Shown: positions 2,979 to 35,774 of the stretch, in pieces
Layout of the letters: the number at the start of each line of letters is the position of its first letter
How positions within the stretch are numbered: the first letter of the stretch is position 1
Origin: a virus
Lineage: Duplodnaviria > Heunggongvirae > Uroviricota > Caudoviricetes
Strand: one strand, 5' to 3'
IMG/VR virus record: IMGVR_UViG_2534681674_000025
Length of the DNA: 35,774 bases
Notes under the pieces: generated by a model
Databases searched by the model: none
Told to the model about the DNA's origin: nothing
What the model saw: the letters and a program-made list of their open reading frames with translations, nothing else
Position numbers and translations under genes: made by a program

Positions 2979-3329
2979 ATGAAAAAAAACGCTAATAATC
3001 CATACTCCAAATTTCGTAATGGCGTAGAACGCCATGTACACCACGTCGCTACCAGTGCATCACGTAGTAACAGTCGCTATAACCTGAACGAGACGCACGC
3101 AACACCGGATGGCCACGCTGTAAAACAAATCGGCGAGCATGCCTGGCTGATTGAGAAAGCTGGAATCGTGGTCCACAAATGCCCACGCAATCCGTTTACC
3201 GGAAACCGCATTTTTGCATTGAACTGCGGCGACAATCACTTCGGGCAGGATTTCACATTATACGAAGCACTTCGCACGGTTGATCGTCTGCTTCGCGGGC
3301 AAAGTTTTATTAAACAGGCTGATTTATAA
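2979..3329 (+). CDS. Hypothetical early-operon protein (116 aa)
   Basis: ORF in operon context; no recognisable motif. Confidence 0.55.
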   Translation: MKKNANNPYSKFRNGVERHVHHVATSASRSNSRYNLNETHATPDGHAVKQIGEHAWLIEKAGIVVHKCPRNPFTGNRIFALNCGDNHFGQDFTLYEALRTVDRLLRGQSFIKQADL

Positions 3330-3629: not shown

Positions 3630-3872
3630 ATGGGCAAAGAATATAAAACTCTCATTAACAAAGCACTTGAGCGTTTTTATTTTCGCTTAAGTGCATCAGG
3701 CGCTCATGCTGAACGTGCGGCCCGTGACTCATTGACCAGAGCAATCCGAAGTCTGTATGACGTGGCTTTTTACGCTGATGATCTGGATGCACTTAACGAA
3801 CTTTCCGAGCTGATCTATGCCGCAGAATGCGGGGAACATATTGAACCGTATAAGCTGGGAAATATCGCATGA
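3630..3872 (+). CDS. Hypothetical early-operon protein (80 aa)
   Basis: ORF with AAAGGG RBS; stop overlaps the next start (ATGA). Confidence 0.5.
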   Translation: MGKEYKTLINKALERFYFRLSASGAHAERAARDSLTRAIRSLYDVAFYADDLDALNELSELIYAAECGEHIEPYKLGNIA

Positions 3873-17455: not shown

Positions 17456-17558
17456 CGACTGACCCCGTCAGCGGGCGGCGTGCGCGGTGTTCCGGTTTGA
17501 CTCCGTGACCGTTTACACCGCGCACCCACCGCCCGATTTTTTTTCAGGAGTGAACTCC

Positions 17559-18053
17559 ATGAGTATGGTTGCCAGAACTGAACCAGGACCCGCAGAGGAC
17601 GACATCACCGATACCGATGATGGCGACACTCGCATTTCAGCAGGTGCATTCTGGCCGGATATTGTGCTGCGCGAGCTGCGTCTGGCGGTACGACTGCCGG
17701 GCCGCGTGACCACCTCCCGCCTGCTGCATACCGCCACTGGGGCCGTGGCTCACGTTACCCGCGAACTGGAAGCGTGGCAGCAGGAACAGCAGGCGGCTGG
17801 CCATCAGACGCTGGCCGATGTTCCGGCACCCGTAATTAACGGAGAAAGCGTCAATCTCTGGCACTGGCGCAATGCTGTTTATACCGCCACACGTGCCCTG
17901 ATTCTGGAGCGTTACCGCGATGCGGACACAACGGACAAGGGCGATCGCCGGGCGGACGCACTGGATATACAGACATCGGATTTGTGGCGCGATGTGAGCT
18001 GGGCCATCTCTGACATTCTGTGCCGCCCGCGAATCTTTGCGGAGTTGTGCTGA
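17559..18053 (+). CDS. L: Head completion/stabilisation protein, gpL homologue (164 aa)
   Basis: Position after M, size matches P2 gpL; CAGGAG RBS before ATG 17559. Confidence 0.85.
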   Translation: MSMVARTEPGPAEDDITDTDDGDTRISAGAFWPDIVLRELRLAVRLPGRVTTSRLLHTATGAVAHVTRELEAWQQEQQAAGHQTLADVPAPVINGESVNLWHWRNAVYTATRALILERYRDADTTDKGDRRADALDIQTSDLWRDVSWAISDILCRPRIFAELC

Positions 18054-19372: not shown

Positions 19373-19514
19373 CCCACCCACATGGGGAAACCTCGGAATA
19401 TGGGGCGACCGCCTTCTGGATGCACTGGAAACCTGTAACGCGGATAAACGGGCCATTGCTGAACTGGATAAGAGAATAGCCGAACTGACACACCAGACGG
19501 GAGTAACACAATGA
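19233..19514 (+). CDS. o-spanin lipoprotein (Rz1/LysC-like, 93 aa) overlapping the i-spanin in another frame
   Basis: Lipobox LLTGC after a short signal sequence; proline-rich mature region; overlapping arrangement as in P2 lysB/lysC. Confidence 0.6.
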   Translation: MNAPTLCLTLVLLTGCAGTQNAPRPAPSVRLIPQTLTMPVTPPPFPDPPTWGNLGIWGDRLLDALETCNADKRAIAELDKRIAELTHQTGVTQ

Positions 19515-21391
19515 CCAGTAAGAACTTTGCACTGATTACAGCCATGACACAGGCTGAACTGACCCGGAAAGTGAATGAATATCTTGCGAAGGGGTGGCAT
19601 CTTCAGGGGGACACACGGGTAGCTTACGAGCCCGGCACCCCGTGGTATCTCATGCAGGCCATGGTGGCCGATGGTGCCACCGAGACGCCCTCTGAGCCAT
19701 TACCAAACAACAAGACGCCGGAATGGTACTACGTGGTTGTGCTTGCCGGGCAGTCCAACGGCATGGCTTACGGTGAAGGGCTTCCGTTACCGGATTCTTA
19801 CGATGCTCCGGATCCGCGCATTAAACAGCTGGCGCGCCGCAGTACGGTACCCCCGGGTGGAGAGGGTTGTACGTATAACGACATCATCCCGGCTGACCAC
19901 TGTCTGCATGATGTGCAGGATATGAGTACGCTGAATCATCCGAAGGCGGACCTGAGCAAAGGTCAGTACGGCTGTGTGGGACAGGGACTTCATATTGCCA
20001 AAAAACTACTCCCGTATATCCCGAATAACGCGGGGATCCTGCTGGTACCATGCTGTCGTGGTGGTTCGGCATTCACTCAGGGCGCGGAGGGAACATTCAG
20101 TACGACCACGGGGGCCAGCCAGGATTCGGCGCGCTGGGGTGCGGGTAAGCCGTTATATCAGGACCTGATCGCACGCACCAAAGCGGCATTACAGAAGAAC
20201 CCGAAAAATGTGTTGCTGGCGGTGTGCTGGATGCAGGGCGAATTTGACATGAGCGCTGCCACCTACGCACAGCAACCGGACCTGTTCACGGCCATGCTGA
20301 AGCAGTTCCGTACTGACCTTTCCGGATTTAACGCGCAGTGCCATGGCGGCAGTGCTGCAGTTATACCGTGGATTTGTGGCGACACGACGTATTACTGGAA
20401 AAACACATACGGCACACAGTATGACTCCGTCTACGGCGCGTACAAAAACAGGGAGAGCGACAACGTTTTCTTTGTGCCGTTCATGACCGACGGTAACGGC
20501 AACAACACGCCCACCAACTTACCGGCAGAAGACCCGGATATTGCTGATGCAGGTTATTACGGCGCGCAATCCCGTAGTAATGGTAATTGGGTATCGTCAA
20601 ATCGTCCGACACATTTCAGTTCATGGGCACGCAGGGGCATTATTTCGGATCGCCTGGCAACCGCTATTCTGAACGCAGTTGGTCGAACCAGCGCCTTCAT
20701 CAGCGGTACCGCACCGGAAATCAAACCCTCGCCCGGCGGCGACACTCCATCGGGGCCGTCTGATGGTGACACATCCGTTCGTACAGTCTCCCTGCTGCCG
20801 ACAGCCGGAGAGGCTGCTGCGCAGGGCTGGACCATCACCGGCGGCAGTGTTGCGCTGGAAGATGGTGTGTTTAAGGTTACCAAGCAGAGCAATAAAACTT
20901 GGTCCCTGATGCATCCGGTGGATGACGCAGTCTCCCTGCTGACACGGGGTGGCAGACTGAGCTGTAAGTTTCGACTGTCAGGCGCACTGACCAACAACCA
21001 GTTCGGTCTGGGAATTTATCTGTATACCGATGTAGCGTTACCTGACGTCGTGGCGATGACCGGGACTGGTAACCCGTTCCTGATGTCGTTCTTCACCCAG
21101 ACCACAGACGGCAAACTGAATCTGATGCATCACAAGAAAGCCGGAAACACAAAGTTGGGCGAGTTCGGGAATTACAGTAACGACTGGCAGACGCTGGAGC
21201 TGGTGTTCACCGCCGGCAGTGCCACGGTTACTCCGAAACTGAATGGAGTGGCTGGCCCGGCATTCCAGGTCATAAAAGACAGTCTGACACTGGGGCTGAA
21301 TGCGCTGACGTTAACTGATATCACTAAAAATGCCGCGTACGGCGTCGATATCGGCAGCCTGGTGCTGGAAATCAATAATCCCGCAGTATAA
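19511..21391 (+). CDS. NanS-p-like O-acetyl esterase (DUF1737 + SASA/SGNH hydrolase domains, 626 aa), moron
   Basis: N-terminal DUF1737-like segment (AMTQAELTRKVNEYLAKGWHLQGD); SGNH-type catalytic motif VLAGQSNGMAYGEG; architecture of prophage-encoded NanS-p esterases of enterohaemorrhagic E. coli as recalled. Confidence 0.8.
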   Translation: MTSKNFALITAMTQAELTRKVNEYLAKGWHLQGDTRVAYEPGTPWYLMQAMVADGATETPSEPLPNNKTPEWYYVVVLAGQSNGMAYGEGLPLPDSYDAPDPRIKQLARRSTVPPGGEGCTYNDIIPADHCLHDVQDMSTLNHPKADLSKGQYGCVGQGLHIAKKLLPYIPNNAGILLVPCCRGGSAFTQGAEGTFSTTTGASQDSARWGAGKPLYQDLIARTKAALQKNPKNVLLAVCWMQGEFDMSAATYAQQPDLFTAMLKQFRTDLSGFNAQCHGGSAAVIPWICGDTTYYWKNTYGTQYDSVYGAYKNRESDNVFFVPFMTDGNGNNTPTNLPAEDPDIADAGYYGAQSRSNGNWVSSNRPTHFSSWARRGIISDRLATAILNAVGRTSAFISGTAPEIKPSPGGDTPSGPSDGDTSVRTVSLLPTAGEAAAQGWTITGGSVALEDGVFKVTKQSNKTWSLMHPVDDAVSLLTRGGRLSCKFRLSGALTNNQFGLGIYLYTDVALPDVVAMTGTGNPFLMSFFTQTTDGKLNLMHHKKAGNTKLGEFGNYSNDWQTLELVFTAGSATVTPKLNGVAGPAFQVIKDSLTLGLNALTLTDITKNAAYGVDIGSLVLEINNPAV

Positions 21392-21414: not shown

Positions 21415-21882
21415 ATGCTTAAGACAAACAGTCTGCGAGAGTCCATGCTTCATGGATGTCGGTGGTGCCAGGCTAATCCCGAGAAATTCACCATTTTCGT
21501 GGAGAGCGGCAACATTGAAACGACCGGAGAAGCGCCCTCGTTTGTTTACCGCTATCAGATGGTGATGTTTGTCATGGATTACGCCGGAGAGCTGGACGAC
21601 CTCACGCTGCCGCTGCTGGCGTGGTTATCCGAAAATCAGCCACAGTTGTTGCTCAATCCGGAGCGTAATCAGGACATCAAATTTTCTGCCGTTATCAATG
21701 ACGATGACAGCGCCGATCTCCTGTTTACGCTCCCCCTGCGGGAACGCGTTCGCATCACGCGCAACAGTCAGGGCACACCGCAGGCAGAACACCTGCCGGA
21801 GCCAAAACCCCGTCTGCCTTCTTCCGAAGGCGACTGGTCGCATGTATTCCAGGATGTGACGTGGGGTGAAAGCGATGGATAA
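21415..21882 (+). CDS. R: Tail completion protein, gpR homologue (155 aa)
   Basis: Size identical to P2 gpR (155 aa); MLK...SLR N-terminus and LAWL.ENQP core recalled from gpR. Confidence 0.85.
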   Translation: MLKTNSLRESMLHGCRWCQANPEKFTIFVESGNIETTGEAPSFVYRYQMVMFVMDYAGELDDLTLPLLAWLSENQPQLLLNPERNQDIKFSAVINDDDSADLLFTLPLRERVRITRNSQGTPQAEHLPEPKPRLPSSEGDWSHVFQDVTWGESDG

Positions 21883-22510
21883 GGCATTCACCCGCGTGGA
21901 TGAAACCTTTGAGGCTATCCGCGACAGCCTGAATCAGCAGGCCATCAATAACATCGCCAGAAAGCTGGCACAGGATTTACGTCGCGCCCAGCAGGCACGT
22001 ATCCGGTCACAAAAAGCGCCGGACGGGACCGAATGGACACCACGCAGACGCCGCGTAACCCGGATATAGGAGCGCATTCGCTTTATCTGGAATAACGAAG
22101 CACGCACGCTGAAAAACTGGCATCACGACACGGGGAAATACGGGCGAACCATTACCGGGTGGGATGAGGATAAAAACAATATCCGCACGTTTTACCGGGA
22201 TGACATCGACCGTTTTCTGGAAATACGCACCCGGCGCATCAACCAGGACAGCACAAAGCGCGTCCCCATGTTCGTAAAACTGCGCACCGCCCGCTACCTG
22301 AAAGCCCGTGCAGATGCCTCCGGTGTGACGGTGGGTTACAGCGGCGTGGCCGCACGTATTGCACGCGTTCATCAGTTCGGTGAGCGCGATCAGGTTGCGC
22401 CGGGCATTTTCACCGATTACCCGGTACGTGAGCTGTTGGGTATCAGCCAGGCAGATGAGCGCCTGATTTATAACACGGTGCTGGGCCGGATTGCGGAGGC
22501 TGTACGGTGA
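21875..22510 (+). pseudogene. S: Tail completion/virion morphogenesis gene S interrupted by a 171-bp in-frame insertion carrying a TAG codon
   Basis: N-part (64 codons) ends at TAG 22067-22069; frame stays open to 22510; C-part carries the conserved VGYSGVAARIARVHQFG motif. Segment 22064-22234 is flanked by direct repeat ACCCGG (22058-22063, 22229-22234); removing it gives about 154 codons, matching P2 S (150 aa as recalled). Confidence 0.7.
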
Positions 22511-26936: not shown

Positions 26937-27514
26937 TGACATTCAGAATGAGTGAACAATCACGGACCATAAAAATTTATAATCTACTGACCGGAACCAA
27001 TGAGTTTATTGGTGAAGGTGATGCATACATTTCACCTCATACAGGTCTGCCTGCAAACAGTACCGATATTGCCCCGCCAGATATTCCGGCTGGCTTCGTG
27101 GCCGTTTTCAACAGTGATGAGGCATCGTGGCATCTCGTTGAAGACCATCGGGGTAAAACGGTTTATGACGTGGCATCAGGGGACTCGTTATTTATTTCTG
27201 AACTCGGTCCGTTACCGGAAAATGTTACCTGGTTGTCGCCGTATGGAGAGTATCAGAAGTGGAACGGCACATCCTGGGTGAAAGATGCAGAAGCAGAAAA
27301 ACTATTTCGGATAAGGGAGGCGGAAGAAACAAAAAACAGCCTGATGCAGGTAGCCAGTGAGCATATTGCACCACTTCAGGATGCTATAGATTTAGATATT
27401 GCGACGGAGGAAGAGACATCGTTACTGGCTGCATGGAAGACATATCGAGTATTGTTGCATCGTGTTGATACAACAGTAGCAGCAGATATTGAGTGGCCAG
27501 TCGCCCCACAATAA
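26936..27514 (+). CDS. G: Tail fibre assembly chaperone, gpG/Tfa homologue (192 aa)
   Basis: Directly downstream of H with TAATG overlap; size near P2 gpG. Confidence 0.85.
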
Positions 27515-27520
27515 AAAGAA

Positions 27521-27550
27521 AAAGCCATCGATAGAAATATCGATGGCTTT
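27521..27550. terminator. Bidirectional rho-independent terminator between convergent G and acetyltransferase genes
   Basis: Perfect 13-bp stem AAAGCCATCGATA / TATCGATGGCTTT with GAAA loop; T-rich tail on the minus strand. Confidence 0.7.
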
Positions 27551-27557
27551 ATGTACT

Positions 27558-28130
27558 CTATTTATACAATACAGCACCGCTCTTTTTAGTTATATATGTG
27601 CAGTTCGATGGTATATCTTTATTTATAAAAGACATTGCACCTATTTTTACATTATCCCCAATTTTACGGGATAATCCAATGATGCAACAATTAGCTCCGA
27701 TATCAACGTTGCTACCAATTTTTACTCTTGAACCAGGTATGTCACCATCTATCTGTCCAATGGTCGTATTCTGTCGTAACACCAGATTTTCACCAGCATC
27801 AACAGCAAAATGAACAACAATTCCAGCATGATGGGGAATTGTTAACCCTTTTCCAATATTTGCGCCCAATCCAATTTCGCAACCAAATTTGTTAATTATT
27901 TTACTGTTTAACTTCTTGGCTGCTTTCTTATGTAATTTATTACCATTAATATACATTTCGTTAGCCAACCGCCACCAGAAAAGGAAATTCCTGTTACGCT
28001 GCTTTTTCTCTCTTAAAAGCCTCCAGATATCCATACGTTTCCGCCGAATTACTTCATGTTTCCAGAAGTTTTTTAAATTAGTAGAGTTCCCAAATAAAAC
28101 AAAGTGAATTGCCATTAGGTAAGACAGCAC
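27558..28130 (-). CDS. Hexapeptide-repeat (left-handed beta-helix) acetyltransferase, CysE/NodL/NeuO-like, in an AT-rich island (190 aa from GTG 28130; longest ORF to 28163)
   Basis: Hexapeptide repeats (IGANIGKGLTIPHHAGIVV, IGSNVDIGANCCIIG, IGDNVKIGAMSFI); RBS AAGGAG 6 nt before GTG; strongly AT-rich relative to flanking phage genes. Confidence 0.8.
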   Translation of the reverse strand: MLSYLMAIHFVLFGNSTNLKNFWKHEVIRRKRMDIWRLLREKKQRNRNFLFWWRLANEMYINGNKLHKKAAKKLNSKIINKFGCEIGLGANIGKGLTIPHHAGIVVHFAVDAGENLVLRQNTTIGQIDGDIPGSRVKIGSNVDIGANCCIIGLSRKIGDNVKIGAMSFINKDIPSNCTYITKKSGAVLYK

Positions 28131-28286
28131 GATAATCTCCTTAATTATTATTTCAGACCACACATGTTATAAGGTTAAGAGATTATAAAATCCTGTTGTT
28201 TATTATTCAAAAACAATTTTCTGAGAAGGACATACAACAGCAAGTCGCCAGTCACCTTCATCAGGAAATTGGCGACATACGTTAAA

Positions 28287-28781
28287 TCAGAGCAGCCCCT
28301 TAACTGAGCTGGCCGCGCTATTAAGGGATGATGTCACCTTATCTTTGAAGCCGGACAACATATCGCTGAACGATGAGGATTGCAGGCGCTCCCGCAAATC
28401 CTCATCACAGCGTTCAAGAGTCAGTGAAAATTCTATCTTTTTCGCCTTACCGTAGCGATCAAACTCGGAACGGGTCGTATTCGTTTCAGTCAGTACATAC
28501 ATGCCGTAAATCTGCCCGACACCATCAATCAGAGGCCAGGGCCGTCCTGTATATGCCTGCGTGGTCAGCAATGAAAGCGACACTTCGCCACCTGTAATTT
28601 CAGGATAAAGCACGCCGGAAAGCACAATGAGATCATCACCTGCACCGATATACTGCCAGCTTGCTGAACGGTTAACGCGTTCATTTTTCACATGCCGCCA
28701 GCTTTTGTTTTGCTGTAACTGCTGATGCGGCAATGTGCGCAGCTCAAAAACAAACATGCCGTAGATCATCATCATGACCAT
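28287..28781 (-). CDS. U: Tail protein U homologue (164 aa)
   Basis: SWRH...LSGVLYPEITGGEVSLSLL...RSEF matches gpU as recalled; follows the tape-measure gene. Confidence 0.85.
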   Translation of the reverse strand: MVMMMIYGMFVFELRTLPHQQLQQNKSWRHVKNERVNRSASWQYIGAGDDLIVLSGVLYPEITGGEVSLSLLTTQAYTGRPWPLIDGVGQIYGMYVLTETNTTRSEFDRYGKAKKIEFSLTLERCDEDLRERLQSSSFSDMLSGFKDKVTSSLNSAASSVKGLL

Positions 28782-28787
28782 GACTCC

Positions 28788-31631
28788 TCAATCTTTATCG
28801 TAAAAACTGCCACGTCCGGCACGGGCGCGCCGTTCCATCTCTGCCCTGACCATTTCACCGACCAGTTTCGCCAGTTCGCGGGGATTCTGCGTAACAACGT
28901 TATGCAGATGAACATGAATTTCACCGCAAAATCCGGAGACAGCAGGCTCCCGGTTACGGGAAGTTGCAGGAACTGATGCCACTGGCGATCGTATGGCCTC
29001 CGCCACCGGGCGGGAGCTGGCCGCAACAACAGGGACCAGCGCCGGAGGCAGCGGAGCCGAGACCACGGGTGTGATATTAATTGCGGGGGCAGGCTTACTG
29101 ACCTGCGCAATCTTCCGCTCCTGCCACTCCCCACGAACAGCAAGTGCGCGGGGCAGGTTCTTAAAGACAATATCGCCGGGGCCAATGCGTTTTTTCGTCT
29201 CATCAACCAGCTTACCTGTGTTATCAGCAATTTTGCTGAGTCTGCGTAGCGTCCCGGTATTGCTGTCTGTGAGCGGTTTGTTGTCTTTGGGTTTATCACC
29301 TCCGGTGCCATTGCCATTTTCCACAGGCTTCGGCGGATTGATTTTCGCCAGGTCCCCCTGAAGCAAGGCAACCTTGTCCTGAAGAATGGCCGCACGCTGT
29401 GCGTCTTCGATTTTCTTGCGCGCCCTTTCCGCTTCATCCGGAAGGACACCAAGTTTTTCAAGTATCCACGCCAGCGTATCCAGTAGCATTTTTGCAGGTG
29501 TCAGAACAAGTTGTAACGCACCGCCAAGAACGTTACCGAATACCTCGCCAGCACTGGTGCATTTATCCAGCGTTTCCTTGCTGGACTCCATCGGTGACAA
29601 CAGCGATTTAAACCAGTTAAACACCAGGCTGATCCCGCTTCCGATTGCGTCAAAAACAGGGCCAAACCGTTCAAAGGTTTCACGCAACGGGGTCAGCCTT
29701 TCCATAATCCCGCTGAACACCCCGGCAAAAAATGCCCTGATGGGATCCCAGTATTTCCAGATAAGAACGGCAGCTCCGGCAAGCGCAGCCACGATAAGAC
29801 CAACCGGACTGAACAGCGCCCCGATAGCGCCACCCAGCAAAGAAACAGAACCCGTCACCATTCCCCACAGCGCAGGCAACACCCTGATGACATTCATTGA
29901 CCGGGTAAGAATGTCGAAACCAAGACGCAAGGTGGCCAGCTTCCCGTAAAGCACCCCAATAACCAGCGACAACGAGCCAATCGTTGCAGTCATTGCCAGC
30001 AACGCACCGCCTGCTATCAGTAGCTGGCGCGTCAGTACCGGATGGGCCTGCGCCAGCGAGGTGATTTTTTCAAGCACCCGCGTGAGCCACTGCGTGACAG
30101 AACGCAGCGGACCGTCAACCAGATCACTGATGCGAATACGAAGACCTTCCCATGCGCTGTCGAGATTTTTCAGGTCTCCATCAAGATTATCGGCCATTAC
30201 TTTTGCAACGCGATCGGCCTCTCCCCTTGCCCCCTGCAATTCTCTGGTCAGTTTTTGCAGTTCTCCTGAACCAGCCGCCGCAACAAGCGTCTGCAAACCA
30301 ACGAACGCCTCTTCTCCGGCGATGTCCTTGAAGAAGGAGACCTGGTCCACCTGTCCGTATTTTTGTGTCGCCTTATAGAGATCAAGCAGCACATCCTCCA
30401 TCGGGCGCATTTTGCCTCTGGCGTCAGCAACTGACACCCCCAGCTCTTTCAGTGCATCAGCCGCAGCTTTTGGCGGTGATGCAAGGCGGGACAGACTTGC
30501 GCGCATGGCCGTACCAGCATCGCTTCCGCGAAGACCATTATTGGCAAGCATCCCGGCCATGGCCGCCGCTTCTTCAAGACTGATACCAAGTTTTGCGGCA
30601 ACCGGACCGGTATACTTCATGGTTTCGCCCAGCGCGCGTAAATCAGTATTGGTCCGGGTGAATGCTGCTGTCAGCGTATCGCCAACCCGGTCCATTTGAT
30701 CGGCTGTCAGGTTGAACTGTGTGAGGATATTGGAGCCTATATCAGCCGTCTCGCCGAGTTCGACGCCACCTGCCAGCGCCATATTAAGAACACCGGGCAA
30801 TGCGGCCTGAATGGCCTGCGGAGTAAAACCAGCCATTGCCAGAAAGCTCTGCCCACTGGCGGCATCACTCGCAGTAAACTGTGTTTCAGAACCAAGTTTT
30901 AACGCCTGCTCACGCAGCGCCTTAAACTGCGGGCTGTTTTTGTCGATTCGCGTCAGTGCCTGAACGCGGGACATCTCTTTGCCGAACCCGATCGCAGGCT
31001 GCAAAAAACGCCCGGCGGCATAGCCGCCAGCCGCTGCAGCACCAATTGCCAGCGCACCACCTGTTTTCAGTTTTCCCGCGGTTTCCTGCGCGCGCGAATA
31101 CCGCTCACGCGCCCGCGTTACACGCGCAAGCGCCTGCCGTTCGCGTTCAAGCTGGTTGTTGTACTGTTCGGTGCGTCTGATGGCCTGCTGGATGGTGTTA
31201 TCGCTGCCTGTCAGGGAAATGCCGTGGCGTTTCAGCTCTCCGCCAAGCTCCCGCATTTTCTGAATTTCCCGTGTGCGCGATTCATTCAGGCGTTCAAGCC
31301 GGGTGCTTAACTGCTGCATCAGCTTTTGTTGTTTTTCGCTGAGCACTGTACCCGTGCGTTGTAACTGATTAAGGGCGTTAAGCTGGCGTCGTGCTTTCAC
31401 GATGCCAGCATCCGCTTTACTGACAGCGTCACGGGCGCGCTCAAATGAACGCGCCTGACGCTCGAGATTTTTGATCGCCCCCTGCGTTCGCTGGATGGAG
31501 TCACCAAACTGCCCCATCAGGCGGCGGGCGTTTTCGGCAGGCCGGGTCAGCCTGTCAACGGCGCTGAAAGCGACCCGGATATCAAGAGTCTTCATTATCT
31601 GCATTCCCGCTGCGAAGTGCCGCCCGCTCAC
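28788..31631 (-). CDS. T: Tail tape measure protein, gpT homologue (start uncertain; 947 aa from longest ORF)
   Basis: Large alpha-helical, Ala/Gly-rich protein between the tail chaperone and U genes. Confidence 0.9.
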   Translation of the reverse strand: MSGRHFAAGMQIMKTLDIRVAFSAVDRLTRPAENARRLMGQFGDSIQRTQGAIKNLERQARSFERARDAVSKADAGIVKARRQLNALNQLQRTGTVLSEKQQKLMQQLSTRLERLNESRTREIQKMRELGGELKRHGISLTGSDNTIQQAIRRTEQYNNQLERERQALARVTRARERYSRAQETAGKLKTGGALAIGAAAAGGYAAGRFLQPAIGFGKEMSRVQALTRIDKNSPQFKALREQALKLGSETQFTASDAASGQSFLAMAGFTPQAIQAALPGVLNMALAGGVELGETADIGSNILTQFNLTADQMDRVGDTLTAAFTRTNTDLRALGETMKYTGPVAAKLGISLEEAAAMAGMLANNGLRGSDAGTAMRASLSRLASPPKAAADALKELGVSVADARGKMRPMEDVLLDLYKATQKYGQVDQVSFFKDIAGEEAFVGLQTLVAAAGSGELQKLTRELQGARGEADRVAKVMADNLDGDLKNLDSAWEGLRIRISDLVDGPLRSVTQWLTRVLEKITSLAQAHPVLTRQLLIAGGALLAMTATIGSLSLVIGVLYGKLATLRLGFDILTRSMNVIRVLPALWGMVTGSVSLLGGAIGALFSPVGLIVAALAGAAVLIWKYWDPIRAFFAGVFSGIMERLTPLRETFERFGPVFDAIGSGISLVFNWFKSLLSPMESSKETLDKCTSAGEVFGNVLGGALQLVLTPAKMLLDTLAWILEKLGVLPDEAERARKKIEDAQRAAILQDKVALLQGDLAKINPPKPVENGNGTGGDKPKDNKPLTDSNTGTLRRLSKIADNTGKLVDETKKRIGPGDIVFKNLPRALAVRGEWQERKIAQVSKPAPAINITPVVSAPLPPALVPVVAASSRPVAEAIRSPVASVPATSRNREPAVSGFCGEIHVHLHNVVTQNPRELAKLVGEMVRAEMERRARAGRGSFYDKD

Positions 31632-32120
31632 GCCAGCTAACCACTTCGCCGGGCGTCATCATGAAGATTTCGGCGGGCGACCAGTTAAAAATGGCGGCAA
31701 TATCCGCCACCAGATCTTCGATGTGCTCAAAGCACACCAGAGTGATTACGCTGCCGTCTCCTGCACGCTCTTCGCGCCAGAGTCTGGCTCGCTCATAAAA
31801 TTTACAGCCACTGCGCACAACTGAATAAAATCGCGTGACGACATTTTTTTAATCATCACTTCATCCAGTCGTGGCGAGGTCACGCGAGGCAACAGCGTAA
31901 ACATGGTATCCGCTTTCAGATTCAGCACATCAGACAGCGACAGACCACGCAGGGATCCAGCCTGCTCAATAGCCCCGGTGATCTCCACATACGTGATTTT
32001 TTCGCCACCACGCTCAATTGGTCGGGTCAGTTTTACGCCACGTTCGACAGCCATATCCTCACCTGCCGTCACATCATCCGCCACGGTGTTATTCCGGGTT
32101 TCAGTATCGATGTCTTTCAT
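31582..32120 (-). CDS. gpE+E' fusion product made by programmed -1 ribosomal frameshift (E frame to about 31845, then -1 frame to 31585)
   Basis: -1 frame ORF (31582-31848) overlaps the E 3' end; the shift must occur on the A7 run because a TAA lies in the -1 frame immediately upstream. Confidence 0.6.
31746..32120 (-). CDS. E: Tail assembly chaperone gpE homologue (likely start at 32054, about 102 aa)
   Basis: Position between the tube and tape-measure genes; contains a slippery A-run near its 3' end with an overlapping -1 frame ORF. Confidence 0.8.
   Translation of the reverse strand: MKDIDTETRNNTVADDVTAGEDMAVERGVKLTRPIERGGEKITYVEITGAIEQAGSLRGLSLSDVLNLKADTMFTLLPRVTSPRLDEVMIKKMSSRDFIQLCAVAVNFMSEPDSGAKSVQETAA
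31844..31850 (-). promoter_or_regulatory. Slippery sequence (A7 on the coding strand) for the E/E' -1 frameshift
   Basis: AAAAAAA within codons ATT AAA AAA ATG of E; conserved tail-chaperone frameshift logic. Confidence 0.55.
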
Positions 32121-32175
32121 CAGTTGTCTCCTTTTCAGTCAAAGGCGACGCACTGCGCCGCCTGCATATTACTTA

Positions 32176-32688
32176 TCAGCCAAGCCCAAGCGCGGAACGG
32201 ATACGGTCAGGCACAATGTCCTTGCCGTCCTTCCGGTAGATGTGGTTCAACAGGTCGATTTCCCACAGCGGGCGATCGTTAACGCTCAGCTTGTAGTAGG
32301 TGTTTTTGACAGCGTAAGTGTGTGATGTGGCTTCGCCCTGTTTGGCTTCCCCCATATCAATTTCCGTCACACGCCCGCGCATCTCGATTTCATACAGATC
32401 GCTTTCTGCATCGGTGTAGTATTCACCCGCAAAACGCAGCAGCGTGCCGTCAATCGTGCCGCCATATTTAAGGAACAGCGCACGAACAGCTCCCCCCATG
32501 ACAAAACTCGCATCAAGCGCGGAGTCGTCCAGACCGAGATCAATACTTACCGCCCCCATCATGCCACCACCACGATAGCTGTCGGTTTTGCGCGTCAGTT
32601 TGGGCGGCGTGACGGATGTCACTTTACCCACTTCGTTTTCACCATCCACAAACAACGTAAAAAAGCGAAGATGTTTTGGTACAGCCAT
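32176..32688 (-). CDS. FII: Tail tube protein, gpFII homologue (170 aa)
   Basis: Size matches P2 FII (172 aa); directly downstream of the sheath gene. Confidence 0.9.
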   Translation of the reverse strand: MAVPKHLRFFTLFVDGENEVGKVTSVTPPKLTRKTDSYRGGGMMGAVSIDLGLDDSALDASFVMGGAVRALFLKYGGTIDGTLLRFAGEYYTDAESDLYEIEMRGRVTEIDMGEAKQGEATSHTYAVKNTYYKLSVNDRPLWEIDLLNHIYRKDGKDIVPDRIRSALGLG

Positions 32689-33872
32689 CAGGCACCTCCC
32701 AGCACCGCAAATGCGGGACCAAAGAATTCATCAGTAAACGTCTGGTAAAGCTCCATGTCTTCCAGCGGGGGAACAGGCGTATATTTGTAGCGAATACGCA
32801 CACGTCCCTGACGTAAATTCGTGGTGCCGTTATCCACCACGTCATACCAGCACTCCGCACCAATCAGTTTCCCGGCAGTAACCAGCGAATCCAGTTTTGC
32901 CCTGATGGCGCTGATAACATCCTTCACATTCGCAGGTGTCAGTGGACTGTCGATGGTTTCAAACTGCGCTTCCGCAATTGAATCAGCCAGCACCTGTGCG
33001 GTTCGGGTATACACCTCAAAGATGTAGGCGTTCGTTTCCGGTGTGCGGTTGCCCCAGAAGCGGAACCCGTTGCGACGAATAATGGTCGTGATTTCTTTGT
33101 TGTTGAGGCTATTGGCATCGCTGTCTTCGGCCTGCAACGACCAGAACACATGCCTGGACATTCCCAGCACATTTTTAACCGGAACGTTGGACAGCGATTT
33201 GTGCCAGCCCTGCTCATGGTCAATGTACGCACGAAGGCCGCACGCATAAGCAGGCGCGGGGAACGTTTCGTTTTTGCCACTTTTCGGGTTGTAGGCGATG
33301 AAGTCCGGCCATAAGAGCATCACCTCACGTTCGTTGAATTTCTGGCGGTAGGTAATCGCCTCAGCCATCGTGTTACAGCCGTGACATGAGGCATACACAA
33401 ACGCGCGCAGTTTACCTGCAATCACGCACAGGGATTTTGTTACAGCCTCCGTGTCCAGCTCCGGCGCGGCCAGAATACGCGGACGGTATCCGATGCTTTC
33501 ATCCTGCTCTGCAACAAGCAGCGCATACATCCCCGTATAGCTGCCGTCATCCTCAGAACCACCGATAACCAGTTGATCCTGCGTCTTTCCGTCTTCTTCT
33601 TTGTGTTCAGCCACGCGAACGACGATCACCTTTGTGCTCACCTGGTCTGCGATGGCCTTAAGCGCACGATAAAGCGTCCCCGTTGTCCCGCATTTTCCCA
33701 GCACGTCATTGACGCGGGTCAGCAGTGTGGGCTTATTCAGCGGGAACAGCTTCGCGTCCGCATCATCCGCCGTTGCCACGATACCGATAACGCTGGAATC
33801 AACATCGTTAATCGCTGTTACCAGGTCGGTATTTTCCGTAACACGGGCACCATGAAAACGAGTTTCACTCAT
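32688..33872 (-). CDS. FI: Contractile tail sheath protein, gpFI homologue (394 aa)
   Basis: FPLNKP, KLRAF.Y, WPDF, EQGWHK.LSNV, IRR.GFRFWGNRT, YTPVPPLE motifs match P2 FI as recalled. Confidence 0.92.
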   Translation of the reverse strand: MSETRFHGARVTENTDLVTAINDVDSSVIGIVATADDADAKLFPLNKPTLLTRVNDVLGKCGTTGTLYRALKAIADQVSTKVIVVRVAEHKEEDGKTQDQLVIGGSEDDGSYTGMYALLVAEQDESIGYRPRILAAPELDTEAVTKSLCVIAGKLRAFVYASCHGCNTMAEAITYRQKFNEREVMLLWPDFIAYNPKSGKNETFPAPAYACGLRAYIDHEQGWHKSLSNVPVKNVLGMSRHVFWSLQAEDSDANSLNNKEITTIIRRNGFRFWGNRTPETNAYIFEVYTRTAQVLADSIAEAQFETIDSPLTPANVKDVISAIRAKLDSLVTAGKLIGAECWYDVVDNGTTNLRQGRVRIRYKYTPVPPLEDMELYQTFTDEFFGPAFAVLGGA

Positions 33873-34029
33873 AGCTTCAGCCCCTTGTATCCGTTAAATG
33901 ATTCGGCAACAATCATCACCCACCACGTGCGTAATCTCACCCCTGCGCCGTTCTCCCGCCACGGCGACAACAAAAAGCAGTAACCCCCTCCGCACGCACA
34001 TGCGACCATGCCGCACAGGGAGGGAACAG
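33873..34029. promoter_or_regulatory. Divergent promoter region between FI (-) and D (+) with candidate late-activator site
   Basis: GTTCT-N12-ACAACAAAAAG at 33950-33977, same motif, spacing and orientation as the site between P and O (14605-14631). Confidence 0.4.
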
Positions 34030-35139
34030 ATGACCGATACCACCATGCAATTGCTCAGTCAGGGCACAGACCCCGTGAAAATGCCGGATTTTGATATTCT
34101 CGCGGAGGGTAAAACGCTGTCAGGCGTGGCAGAGCGCCTGATGAGCCTGTCACTGACCGACAACCGGGGATTTGAGGCGGACCAGCTCACCATCACGCTG
34201 GATGATGCGGATGGTCAGTTGCAGCTACCGCCACGGGGCGCGCGCCTGACGGTTCTCATTGGCTGGAAAGGAGAACCGCTGACAGAAAAAGGCACTTACA
34301 TTGTTGATGAAATCGCTCACGAAGGACCGCCGGACAGGCTGACTGTTTCAGCCAGAAGCGCAGATTTTCGGGATGAATTTAACGTTAAACGTGAGGTGTC
34401 CTGGCATGATGTGACCGTTGAGCGCGTGGTATCTGCCATCGCTCATCGGTACGGTCTGAAACCGCAAATCAGCGAAATGCTGATGGATATCGAAATCGAC
34501 CACGCCGACCAGACCGAAGAAAGCGATATGTCCTTCCTTACGCGCATGGCGGAAATGCTGGGCGCAATCACCACGGTAAAAAGCGGCAATCTGTTATTCA
34601 TCATGCCAGGTGGTGGCGTGAACGCACAGGGCCAGCCGTTGCCCTCGTTCGCCATTACACGCAGCAGCGGCGATCGCCATCAGTTCCGTATTGCTGACCG
34701 CGAGGCGTATACGGGGGTACGCGCCTACTGGCTTGATCTTAATTACGGGAAAAAGAAAAAAGTCAGCGTGAAACGCCGTAAACCGCCAAAACCCAAAAAG
34801 GAGAAAAGCAGCAGCCGTGAAGGTGATTATATGGAAGGCGCGGAAGGCAATGTGTTTGTGTTACGCAAGACTTATCAGAACGAGCAGGCAGCAAGACGCG
34901 CAGCGGCGGCAAAGTGGCAGCAGCTACAACGCGGAGCCGCATCATTCTCCATCACGCTGGCATGTGGTCGTGCAGAACTCTACCCCGAAATGCATGGCAC
35001 GGTAACAGGATTTAAAAGCGAGATTGATAATCAGGACTGGATTATTGCAAAAGCCGAGCACACCATCGATAACAGCGGCTTTACCACGCAGCTTGAGCTT
35101 GAGGCAAAAATCTCGGAATGGATAGCAGAAACAGAGTGA
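34030..35139 (+). CDS. D: Tail protein D homologue (369 aa)
   Basis: AGGGAGG RBS before ATG 34030; size near P2 gpD (387 aa); followed by ogr. Confidence 0.88.
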   Translation: MTDTTMQLLSQGTDPVKMPDFDILAEGKTLSGVAERLMSLSLTDNRGFEADQLTITLDDADGQLQLPPRGARLTVLIGWKGEPLTEKGTYIVDEIAHEGPPDRLTVSARSADFRDEFNVKREVSWHDVTVERVVSAIAHRYGLKPQISEMLMDIEIDHADQTEESDMSFLTRMAEMLGAITTVKSGNLLFIMPGGGVNAQGQPLPSFAITRSSGDRHQFRIADREAYTGVRAYWLDLNYGKKKKVSVKRRKPPKPKKEKSSSREGDYMEGAEGNVFVLRKTYQNEQAARRAAAAKWQQLQRGAASFSITLACGRAELYPEMHGTVTGFKSEIDNQDWIIAKAEHTIDNSGFTTQLELEAKISEWIAETE

Positions 35140-35181
35140 GCAACTTAGAATAGCAGCAGCACCACGTTAAGGGAGGTCGCT

Positions 35182-35442
35182 ATGTTCCGTTGTCCGCTTT
35201 GTGGCGCATCTGCCCGTATCCGCACCAGTCGTCCTGAAAATGATTCAAACACCGTGCGGCAAAAGTATTACCAGTGTAACAACCTGGAATGCGGCGTATG
35301 CTTCTCAACACTGGAAGCTTTCCATAAATTCACATCAAAACACACCTCCGGCGTTCACTCTTCAGAAGGTATCCCGTGGCATGAGCTGCCAGCTTCACAC
35401 AGGGGAAACAATCAGATGAGTTTGCCTTTACCTCAGAATTAA
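35182..35442 (+). CDS. ogr: Ogr/Delta-family zinc-finger late transcription activator (86 aa)
   Basis: MFRCPLCGASARIRTSR...YYQCNNLECGVCF parallels P2 Ogr (MFHCPLC...HQCQNVNCSATF) with a CxxC...CxxC zinc finger. Confidence 0.88.
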   Translation: MFRCPLCGASARIRTSRPENDSNTVRQKYYQCNNLECGVCFSTLEAFHKFTSKHTSGVHSSEGIPWHELPASHRGNNQMSLPLPQN

Positions 35443-35633: not shown

Positions 35634-35774
35634 ATGTCGCAAAAATCGCTTACGGCCATCACGTTCTGCGTGACGGTAATCCTCATCATCTGGATGCTAC
35701 ACGGTTCGCTGTGTGAAATACGGATGAGCTTCTGGGGAGCGGAGTTTGCGGCGTTCTTACAGTGTAAGCAGTAA
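35634..35774 (+). CDS. hok: Hok/Gef-family type I toxin (46 aa: MSQKSLTAITFCVTVILIIWMLHGSLCEIRMSFWGAEFAAFLQCKQ)
   Basis: N-terminal transmembrane helix followed by the family signature SLCEIR...E.AAF; AAGGAG RBS 8 nt upstream; below the ORF-track cut-off, read from the sequence; stop codon is the last 3 bases of the window. Confidence 0.75.
   Translation: MSQKSLTAITFCVTVILIIWMLHGSLCEIRMSFWGAEFAAFLQCKQ

Follow-up and report, generated by a model that had tools for sequence, protein, structure and literature searches.

Two probable late-activator sites and their predicted divergent promoters in a P88-like prophage

A 22-bp near-palindrome, GTTCT-N12-ACAAC, is present in two copies in the P2-like prophage described here, and both copies are very probably operators for the prophage's own Ogr-family late activator, with each operator serving two divergent promoters. 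This reading is drawn from the DNA itself and from comparison with its relatives. The class of element is already known, as is the site located between the late genes P and O, while the site located between FI and D appears to be a new and widespread instance of this class with a shifted half-site (ACAAC rather than CCA).

The prophage and its two copies of the motif

The window (the whole stretch of DNA that was analyzed, 35,774 nucleotides) is a P2-family prophage that shares approximately 98% identity with Escherichia phage P88 and Citrobacter phage Shae_phiSM, and this P88-like prophage is placed in the genus Xuanwuvirus of the Peduoviridae. Gene identities were assigned using Pfam. The large terminase gene P (12791-14542, minus strand; Terminase_6N, Terminase_6C, and Terminase_5) heads a leftward P-Q unit, and the capsid scaffold/protease gene O (14697-15533, plus strand; Phage_GPO) heads a rightward unit. 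The tail sheath gene FI (32688-33872, minus strand; Phage_sheath_1 and related domains) heads the leftward F unit FI-FII-E-T-U (28287-33872, minus strand), which extends to U (28287-28781, minus strand; Phage_P2_GpU) and has a like layout in P88. The gene for the baseplate hub, or late control D, protein (34030-35139, plus strand; Phage_GPD) has its start at 34030 rather than 34031, is transcribed away from FI, and is followed by an ogr homologue (35182-35442, plus strand; Ogr_Delta PF04606, E 5e-14), the presumed activator of both dyads. The Ogr homologue shares 39% identity with P2 Ogr and 32% identity with the 186 B protein. All four Cys residues are retained, with the spacing CX2C-X24-CX4C rather than X22, such that the Cys-Cys loop contains two extra residues. 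The F unit is closed by a strong hairpin terminator (27521-27550, minus strand), wherein a 13-bp stem is followed by a T-run, and between U and this terminator is a 201-aa ORF (27558-28163, minus strand) with a weak hexapeptide-transferase match. P88 has an invertible tail-fiber segment and a DNA invertase in place of this ORF/terminator region.

The two copies of the motif are found on the plus strand as GTTCTGGCCGTTTTCTTACAACAAAAG at 14605-14631 and GTTCTCCCGCCACGGCGACAACAAAAAG at 33950-33977. The original prediction that one motif is shared by two pairs of divergently transcribed late genes (P on the minus strand and O on the plus strand; FI on the minus strand and D on the plus strand) was borne out on both counts. 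The shared motif, GTTCT-N12-ACAACAAAA, is exact, with two matches in the 35.8-kb window (14605 and 33950) and none in 100 dinucleotide-preserving shuffles, while a looser pattern that allows one mismatch has 10 matches in the window versus 4 expected. The P/O dyad spans 14605-14626 (centre 14615.5) and is immediately followed by an A-tract (14627-14630), and the FI/D dyad spans 33950-33971 (centre 33960.5) and is likewise followed by an A-tract (33972-33976); neither dyad is assigned to a strand. From the center of the P/O dyad, it is 73.5 nt to the ATG of P (14542, minus strand) and 81.5 nt to that of O (14697); from the center of the FI/D dyad, it is 88.5 nt to the ATG of FI (33872, minus strand) and 69.5 nt to that of D. 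No Rfam family was found in either gap.

A scan of the whole window for further matches to the exact short form, GTTCT-N12-ACAAC, identified one extra match and none upstream of V. The extra match (29510-29531, minus strand) lies on the coding strand within the tape-measure gene T. This match was rejected as an operator and is probably due to chance, as it has no A-tract and is absent from the top matches of the weight matrix described below. The published late-activator consensus is TGT-N12-ACA. Exact matches to this consensus are present in the window only at 11470 and 12209, versus 9 expected by chance, and neither is located at a late gene start. Both window dyads read TcT-N12-ACA, matching five of the six consensus positions and missing one.

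Predicted promoter geometry and known late promoters

A consensus sigma-70 scan identified no -35/-10 pair in either 14543-14696 or 33873-34029, and a missing -35 in both gaps is as expected for activator-dependent promoters. Candidate -10 elements are found on both sides of each dyad. In the P/O gap, the predicted pP -10 is TAATCT (reverse complement of AGATTA; 14567-14572, minus strand), with its near edge 43.5 bp from the dyad center and a predicted start at about 14560, and the predicted pO element is an extended -10, TG-c-CATCAT (14657-14665, plus strand), with its near edge 44.5 bp from the center and a predicted start at about 14672. In the FI/D gap, the predicted pF -10 is GATGAT (reverse complement of ATCATC; 33912-33917, minus strand; predicted start about 33905) and the predicted pD element is the extended -10 TG-c-GACCAT (34001-34009, plus strand; predicted start about 34016), each with its near edge 43.5 bp from the center. 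The pD hexamer, GACCAT, is weak, and the predicted pD start is just 5' of the ribosome-binding site GGGAGGG (34018-34024). Based on the -10 positions, the predicted start-to-start distances are 112 bp (P/O) and 111 bp (FI/D), compared to a mapped distance of 111 bp in P2, and the predicted starts are 55.5-56.5 bp from the dyad centers, compared to the mapped P2 value of 55.5. With the conserved TG motif (see below), pD and pO could be active to some extent without the activator.

Several additional features of the gaps merit description. Relative to the predicted pO and pD starts, the A-tract adjoining ACAAC occupies about -44 to -40, a placement that may mark a proximal UP-element subsite. 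A (CG)4-type tract (CGCGCGCG) is located directly upstream of the pP and pD -10 elements in most lineages and is absent at pO and pF; in the window this tract is found at 14574-14583 and 33990-33999, and it is degenerate at the window pD (CGCACGCAC). Downstream, a -10-like TAGAAT (35146-35151, plus strand) is located just after the D stop codon and reads TAGAAT, CATAAT, or TAAAAT in relatives. This element is likely to be the promoter of ogr itself, as judged from its sequence and position, and the P2 record annotates an ogr promoter in the equivalent D-ogr gap. In many relatives (L005-L049), but not in the window, a CUCCC...GGGAG hairpin covers the Shine-Dalgarno sequence of ogr, although the predicted stability of this hairpin is not significant (z = -1.3, -0.2).

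Comparison with the mapped late promoters of P2, which had been proposed as a check on the motif, places it in register with the annotated P2 and 186 sites and reveals similar geometry. In P2 (AF063097), a single site (3057-3087) annotated "activator binding site; pO, pP promoters" lies between mapped starts at 3016 (minus strand) and 3127 (plus strand). The center of the P2 dyad is 3071.5, and the hexamers TAGCCT and GAAACT (3115-3120) are each 43.5 bp from it. Separate activator sites are annotated in the P2 record for pV and pF. In 186 (U32222), a single B-protein site (3798-3817) is annotated for both pV and p12, and a further site is annotated for pJ. The P2 sites read GTTGT-N12-CCATC, GTTGT-N12-CCAAC, and GTTGT-N12-CAAAT, and the 186 sites read GTTGT-N12-CCAGT and GTTGT-N12-CCAGC; the 5+12+5 register of GTTCT-N12-ACAAC is common to all of them. 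Like the window P/O gap, P2 pP/pO and 186 p12/pV contain a partial dyad between divergent terminase and scaffold genes. Both phages also resemble the window in encoding an Ogr/B zinc-finger activator, cognate to their sites, and the P2 -10 edges, 43.5 bp on either side of the dyad center, are placed much as in the window. The P/O arrangement is orthologous to P2 pP/pO and 186 p12/pV and, because the bidirectional late region at this position is annotated in both P2 and 186, it is established biology and not a new inference. Direct alignment of the window P/O gap with that of P2 was set aside because the sequences are too diverged, and a comparison centered on the dyad was used in its place. 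Differences from P2 and 186 are found in the half-sites, with the right half being ACAAC plus an A-tract in the window versus CCA(T/A/G)(C/T), and the left half being GTTCT versus GTTGT. Furthermore, the strong half-site faces O in the window and faces P in P2.

The tail sheath operon promoters offer a second comparison. The P2 pF site (17555-17583; start 17626-17628) and the 186 pJ site (14091-14110; start 14159) resemble the window pF in having a GA(T/A)NAT-type -10 and, after it, about 30-40 nt of leader up to the FI ATG. In contrast to the window, P2 pF and 186 pJ are unidirectional and drive an operon that runs from FI through U and D into ogr; in the window the FI-U block runs the other way, D is separated from it, and the dyad also faces D. 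The FI/D region was not found to be orthologous to a known bidirectional region, as the FI...U-D order is collinear in P2, 186, and the Wadgaonvirus 500465-1. The FI/D pair is a separate, lineage-specific instance and not the orthologue of a described region. A search of the accessible literature for the inverted FI-U layout or for a D promoter in P88-like phages identified neither, and a prior mention in the classic P2 and 186 papers is possible.

A related case has been described for the Stenotrophomonas phage Smp131, wherein TGT-N12-ACA-like late sites were assigned by sequence, the sites PP' and PO' have one set of coordinates on opposite strands, and changes in gene order altered which genes are controlled by each late promoter (PMC3931495). 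Smp131 belongs to another lineage and underwent another rearrangement, and no FI/D divergent pair is described for it.

Conservation of the sites and the inverted FI-U block

In both the window and P88, FI-U is on the minus strand and D-ogr is on the plus strand. In contrast, FI-FII-E-T-U-D-ogr is collinear in P2, 186, and 500465-1 and is driven by the unidirectional pF or pJ. Since FI-U is on the strand opposite D, D is not co-transcribed with FI-U, and D (with ogr behind it) requires a promoter of its own. The original prediction had counted one control region more than would be expected if D were transcribed with FI-U, and this inverted gene order, which is unlike that of P2 and 186, accounts for it. 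FI is divergent from D, with ogr downstream, in 47 of 47 related loci (D protein 64-98% identity), the hosts of which include Salmonella, Serratia, Erwinia, Pantoea, Enterobacter, Klebsiella, Kosakonia, Brenneria, Pectobacterium, Edwardsiella, and Symbiopectobacterium. The same divergent layout is found in phages of Novemvirus, Reginaelenavirus, Reipivirus, Senquatrovirus, and Gemsvirus, as well as in a KSP20 fragment from 2009. The FI-U inversion is therefore a lineage trait and not a local accident. Of 5426 complete E. coli genomes, 1370 carry the 301-bp FI/D control region (>=95% identity), some of them in two or three copies, making the P88-like prophage lineage among the commonest in E. 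coli, and a diverged form of the region is found in prophages of many enterobacterial genera. Two loci carry Firmicutes labels (L004, a Vagococcus sp. WN89Y contig, and L045, a Planococcaceae MAG) with D at 98% protein identity, and contamination or mis-binning is the likeliest explanation for the prophage in these records.

The orientation of the window site is informative with respect to the rearrangement. On the strand that runs toward FI, it reads GTTGT-N12-AGAAC, and its good half is the distal one, just as at P2 pF and 186 pJ, consistent with a block that was inverted together with pF and its dyad.

The conservation of the FI/D region was examined by comparative footprinting of 40 FI-D gaps of distinct sequence. 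Each of the 40 contains the dyad, at 68-78 nt from the ATG of FI. Its right half and the A-tract (GACAACAAA) are nearly invariant, and the left half varies by lineage (GTTGT, GGTCT, GTTCT, or GATGT), with about 10 loci containing a perfect GTTGT-N12-ACAAC. On the D side, an invariant TG is followed by one base and a hexamer with invariant A2 and T6, and on the FI side (reverse complement) the element is GA(T/A)NAT with invariant A2, A5, and T6. The spacing between the dyad and these blocks is nearly free of indels, the exceptions being an additional base on the left in 3LV2017 and on the right in L009 and L022, although conservation of spacing within a 157-nt gap is to some degree expected from close packing alone. 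The same arrangement extends to the P/O gap, as the four -10 elements are found at matching offsets around both dyads in four independent lineages in which the sequence between them has diverged. The pP hexamer TAATCT is at one constant distance from the dyad in the window, phiT5282H, 3LV2017, and Kp4847-1, and pO (TGc followed by (C/G)AT(C/G)AT) is at an identical offset in four independent lineages. A search of viral contigs with the O protein returned only loci that are 99-100% identical and uninformative for footprinting. Variation among these close relatives spares the functional elements, with too few SNPs for significance.

The number of sites per genome was probed using a 27-column weight matrix built from 29 unique FI/D sites, from which the window and two near-identical relatives were left out. 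In the window, the highest score from this matrix, 24.9 bits, falls on the FI/D site, followed by 22.0 bits for the P/O site and 11.1 bits for the next match; in 200 shuffled windows the maxima have a mean of 9.7 (sd 3.0), with the highest being 20.5. Exactly two outstanding sites, P/O and FI/D, are also found in P88, phiT5282H, 3LV2017, Kp4847-1, Kp4861-1, 500465-2, ST16-OXA48phi5.4, and CP052639, so that each of nine genomes has two high-scoring sites, a single one in each gap. Furthermore, both sites in a genome have the same half-site flavor, with GTTCT occurring twice in the window, GGTCTGGCC (GGTCTG) twice in phiT5282H, and GTTGTG twice in 3LV2017. Matching half-site variants within a genome are what co-evolution with one cognate activator would produce.

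The suggestion that an additional site might be found upstream of V did not hold. No third, pV-type site is present in the window, where the best remaining matrix score (11.1 bits) is at the level of shuffle noise. The absence of pV is attributed to the overlap of the S stop codon with the V start (22507-22510). SEN5 (L133) keeps an S/V gap and has a third site there at 9257-9283. Consequently, the genes from O through S-V to G (about 13 kb) probably form one unit without an internal activator site, as judged from the sequence.

Two observations concern genes located within this rightward unit. The tail-completion gene S (21875-22510) is interrupted by an in-frame amber TAG at 22067-22069, a codon that is CAG (Gln) in P88, and each of the two pieces still has a match to Pfam Phage_tail_S (3-55 and 59-144 of the profile). 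Tail completion may be impaired in the prophage, or the amber codon may be a sequencing error. Additionally, a 626-aa ORF (19511-21391, plus strand) with DUF1737, SASA (sialate O-acetylesterase-type), and DUF6645 domains is found between the lysis genes and R, where P88 has no gene. This ORF looks like a NanS-p-like esterase cargo gene that would be expressed with the late genes.

Proposed operator function and alternative explanations

P2 Ogr binds inverted repeats centered near -55, and contact with RNA polymerase's alpha subunit is needed, with mutations in ogr suppressing rpoA109. A comparable mechanism is proposed for the window. First, the Ogr homologue would bind each dyad, the center of which lies about 55 bp upstream of the predicted starts of a divergent promoter pair with no -35. 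Next, Ogr bound at one site would recruit RNA polymerase in both directions, presumably via the alpha C-terminal domain as in P2. The two operators would thereby control four units: pP (P-Q), pO (O through S, V, to G), pF (FI-FII-E-T-U), and pD (D into ogr). The FI/D arrangement is proposed to have arisen when the FI-U block was turned around relative to P2 and 186, carrying pF and its dyad with it, which would have placed a symmetric operator beside D. A pD -10 would then have evolved, or been retained, at the mirror-image distance from the dyad. Of the two bidirectional late control regions that were originally predicted, P/O was already part of P2 biology, and FI/D is favored by its mirror-image geometry, with the starts and the dependence on Ogr being predicted for both.

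The alternative that survives best, although it is unlikely, is that the FI/D dyad serves only the ancestral pF, and that D and ogr are expressed from an activator-independent extended -10 promoter that lies beside the operator by chance. An extended -10 can suffice for promoter activity with neither a -35 nor an activator, and the TG-n-hexamer upstream of D is invariant in the 40 sequences. Moreover, ogr seemingly has a -10-like element of its own, such that an Ogr-dependent pD is not strictly needed by the circuit. However, the pD hexamer keeps a constant distance from the dyad in 38 of the 40 sequences, and this distance mirrors that on the pF side, with both being at the 43.5 bp of the mapped bidirectional P2 pP/pO. 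The TGn feature is also shared by pO in the same genomes, the P2 counterpart of which is annotated as activator-dependent, and the poor window hexamer (GACCAT) argues against a pD that functions without an activator. Finally, D is a structural tail gene that is needed only late.

It is less likely still that the dyads are bound by a regulator other than the Ogr homologue, either a phage or a host protein, and that the likeness to P2 is superficial. The right half-site ACAACAAA differs from that of P2 and 186 (CCA..), and the matrix built from this lineage does not detect the P2 and 186 sites. The activators have diverged to 32-45% identity, and a shifted half-site preference is therefore expected. 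In the left half GTTGT, in the N12 spacing and register, and also in location and geometry, the dyads agree with the annotated Ogr/B sites, and the perfect versions of the dyad contain TGT-N12-ACA. Furthermore, an Ogr_Delta gene is syntenic in every one of the 47 loci. The P4 delta, phiR73, and PSP3 Pag activators and Serratia NucC, which are satellite or host-adopted regulators of the same Ogr/Delta family, act on -55 dyads with promoter specificities that overlap and are not identical. The claim that the dyad is consistent with a binding site for the Ogr-type activator encoded at 35182-35442 stands, with binding by Ogr itself being suggested by register and synteny.

The possibility that the two sites resemble each other by chance, or are remnants without function, left for instance by recombination of one gap with the other, is effectively refuted by the comparative data, for while the gene T match illustrates that short-form matches can arise by chance, the long form is absent from all 100 shuffles, the site is conserved across genera in which the spacer and flanks have diverged, an independent matrix recovers both window sites, and neither gap is covered by an Rfam family.

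Beyond the preferred reading of two Ogr operators that each serve divergent promoters, we lean modestly toward a broader regulatory interpretation. The inversion may have made the sheath promoter a second bidirectional Ogr region, with the new pD reading into ogr and creating a late positive-feedback loop. Together with an S-V fusion that removed pV, this would place the whole late regulon on only two operators. The asymmetry of the dyads, in which the strong ACAAC and A-tract face O and D and the weak GTTCT or GGTCT faces P and FI, would then set relative output. For P2 specialists, the case as a whole is an incremental and expected extension rather than a surprise. More generally, a symmetric activator site allows for cheap rearrangement of operons, as inversion of a block along with its -55 dyad puts a usable operator beside the stranded gene. 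The logic of the FI/D region bears on annotation and on the prediction of inducible prophages and the P4-like satellites that depend on them, and Ogr-type activator/promoter pairs are possible orthogonal parts for bidirectional expression.

Three further features were identified elsewhere in the window. A match to the Rfam ALIL pseudoknot, an IS3-family programmed-frameshift element, is found at 9984-10099 (plus strand; 115.7 bits) with ORFs at 9703-10044 and 9935-10915, which points to an insertion sequence of the IS3 family, with the partition-like genes on one side and the portal gene on the other. A full-length match to Rfam IS009 (27279-27477, plus strand; 177 bits) overlaps the 3' part of the tail-fiber assembly gene G. 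Lastly, a 46-aa ORF at the right end of the window (35634-35774, plus strand) encodes a Hok/Gef-family toxin (Pfam E 3.7e-07), and P88 annotates hok/gef equivalently.
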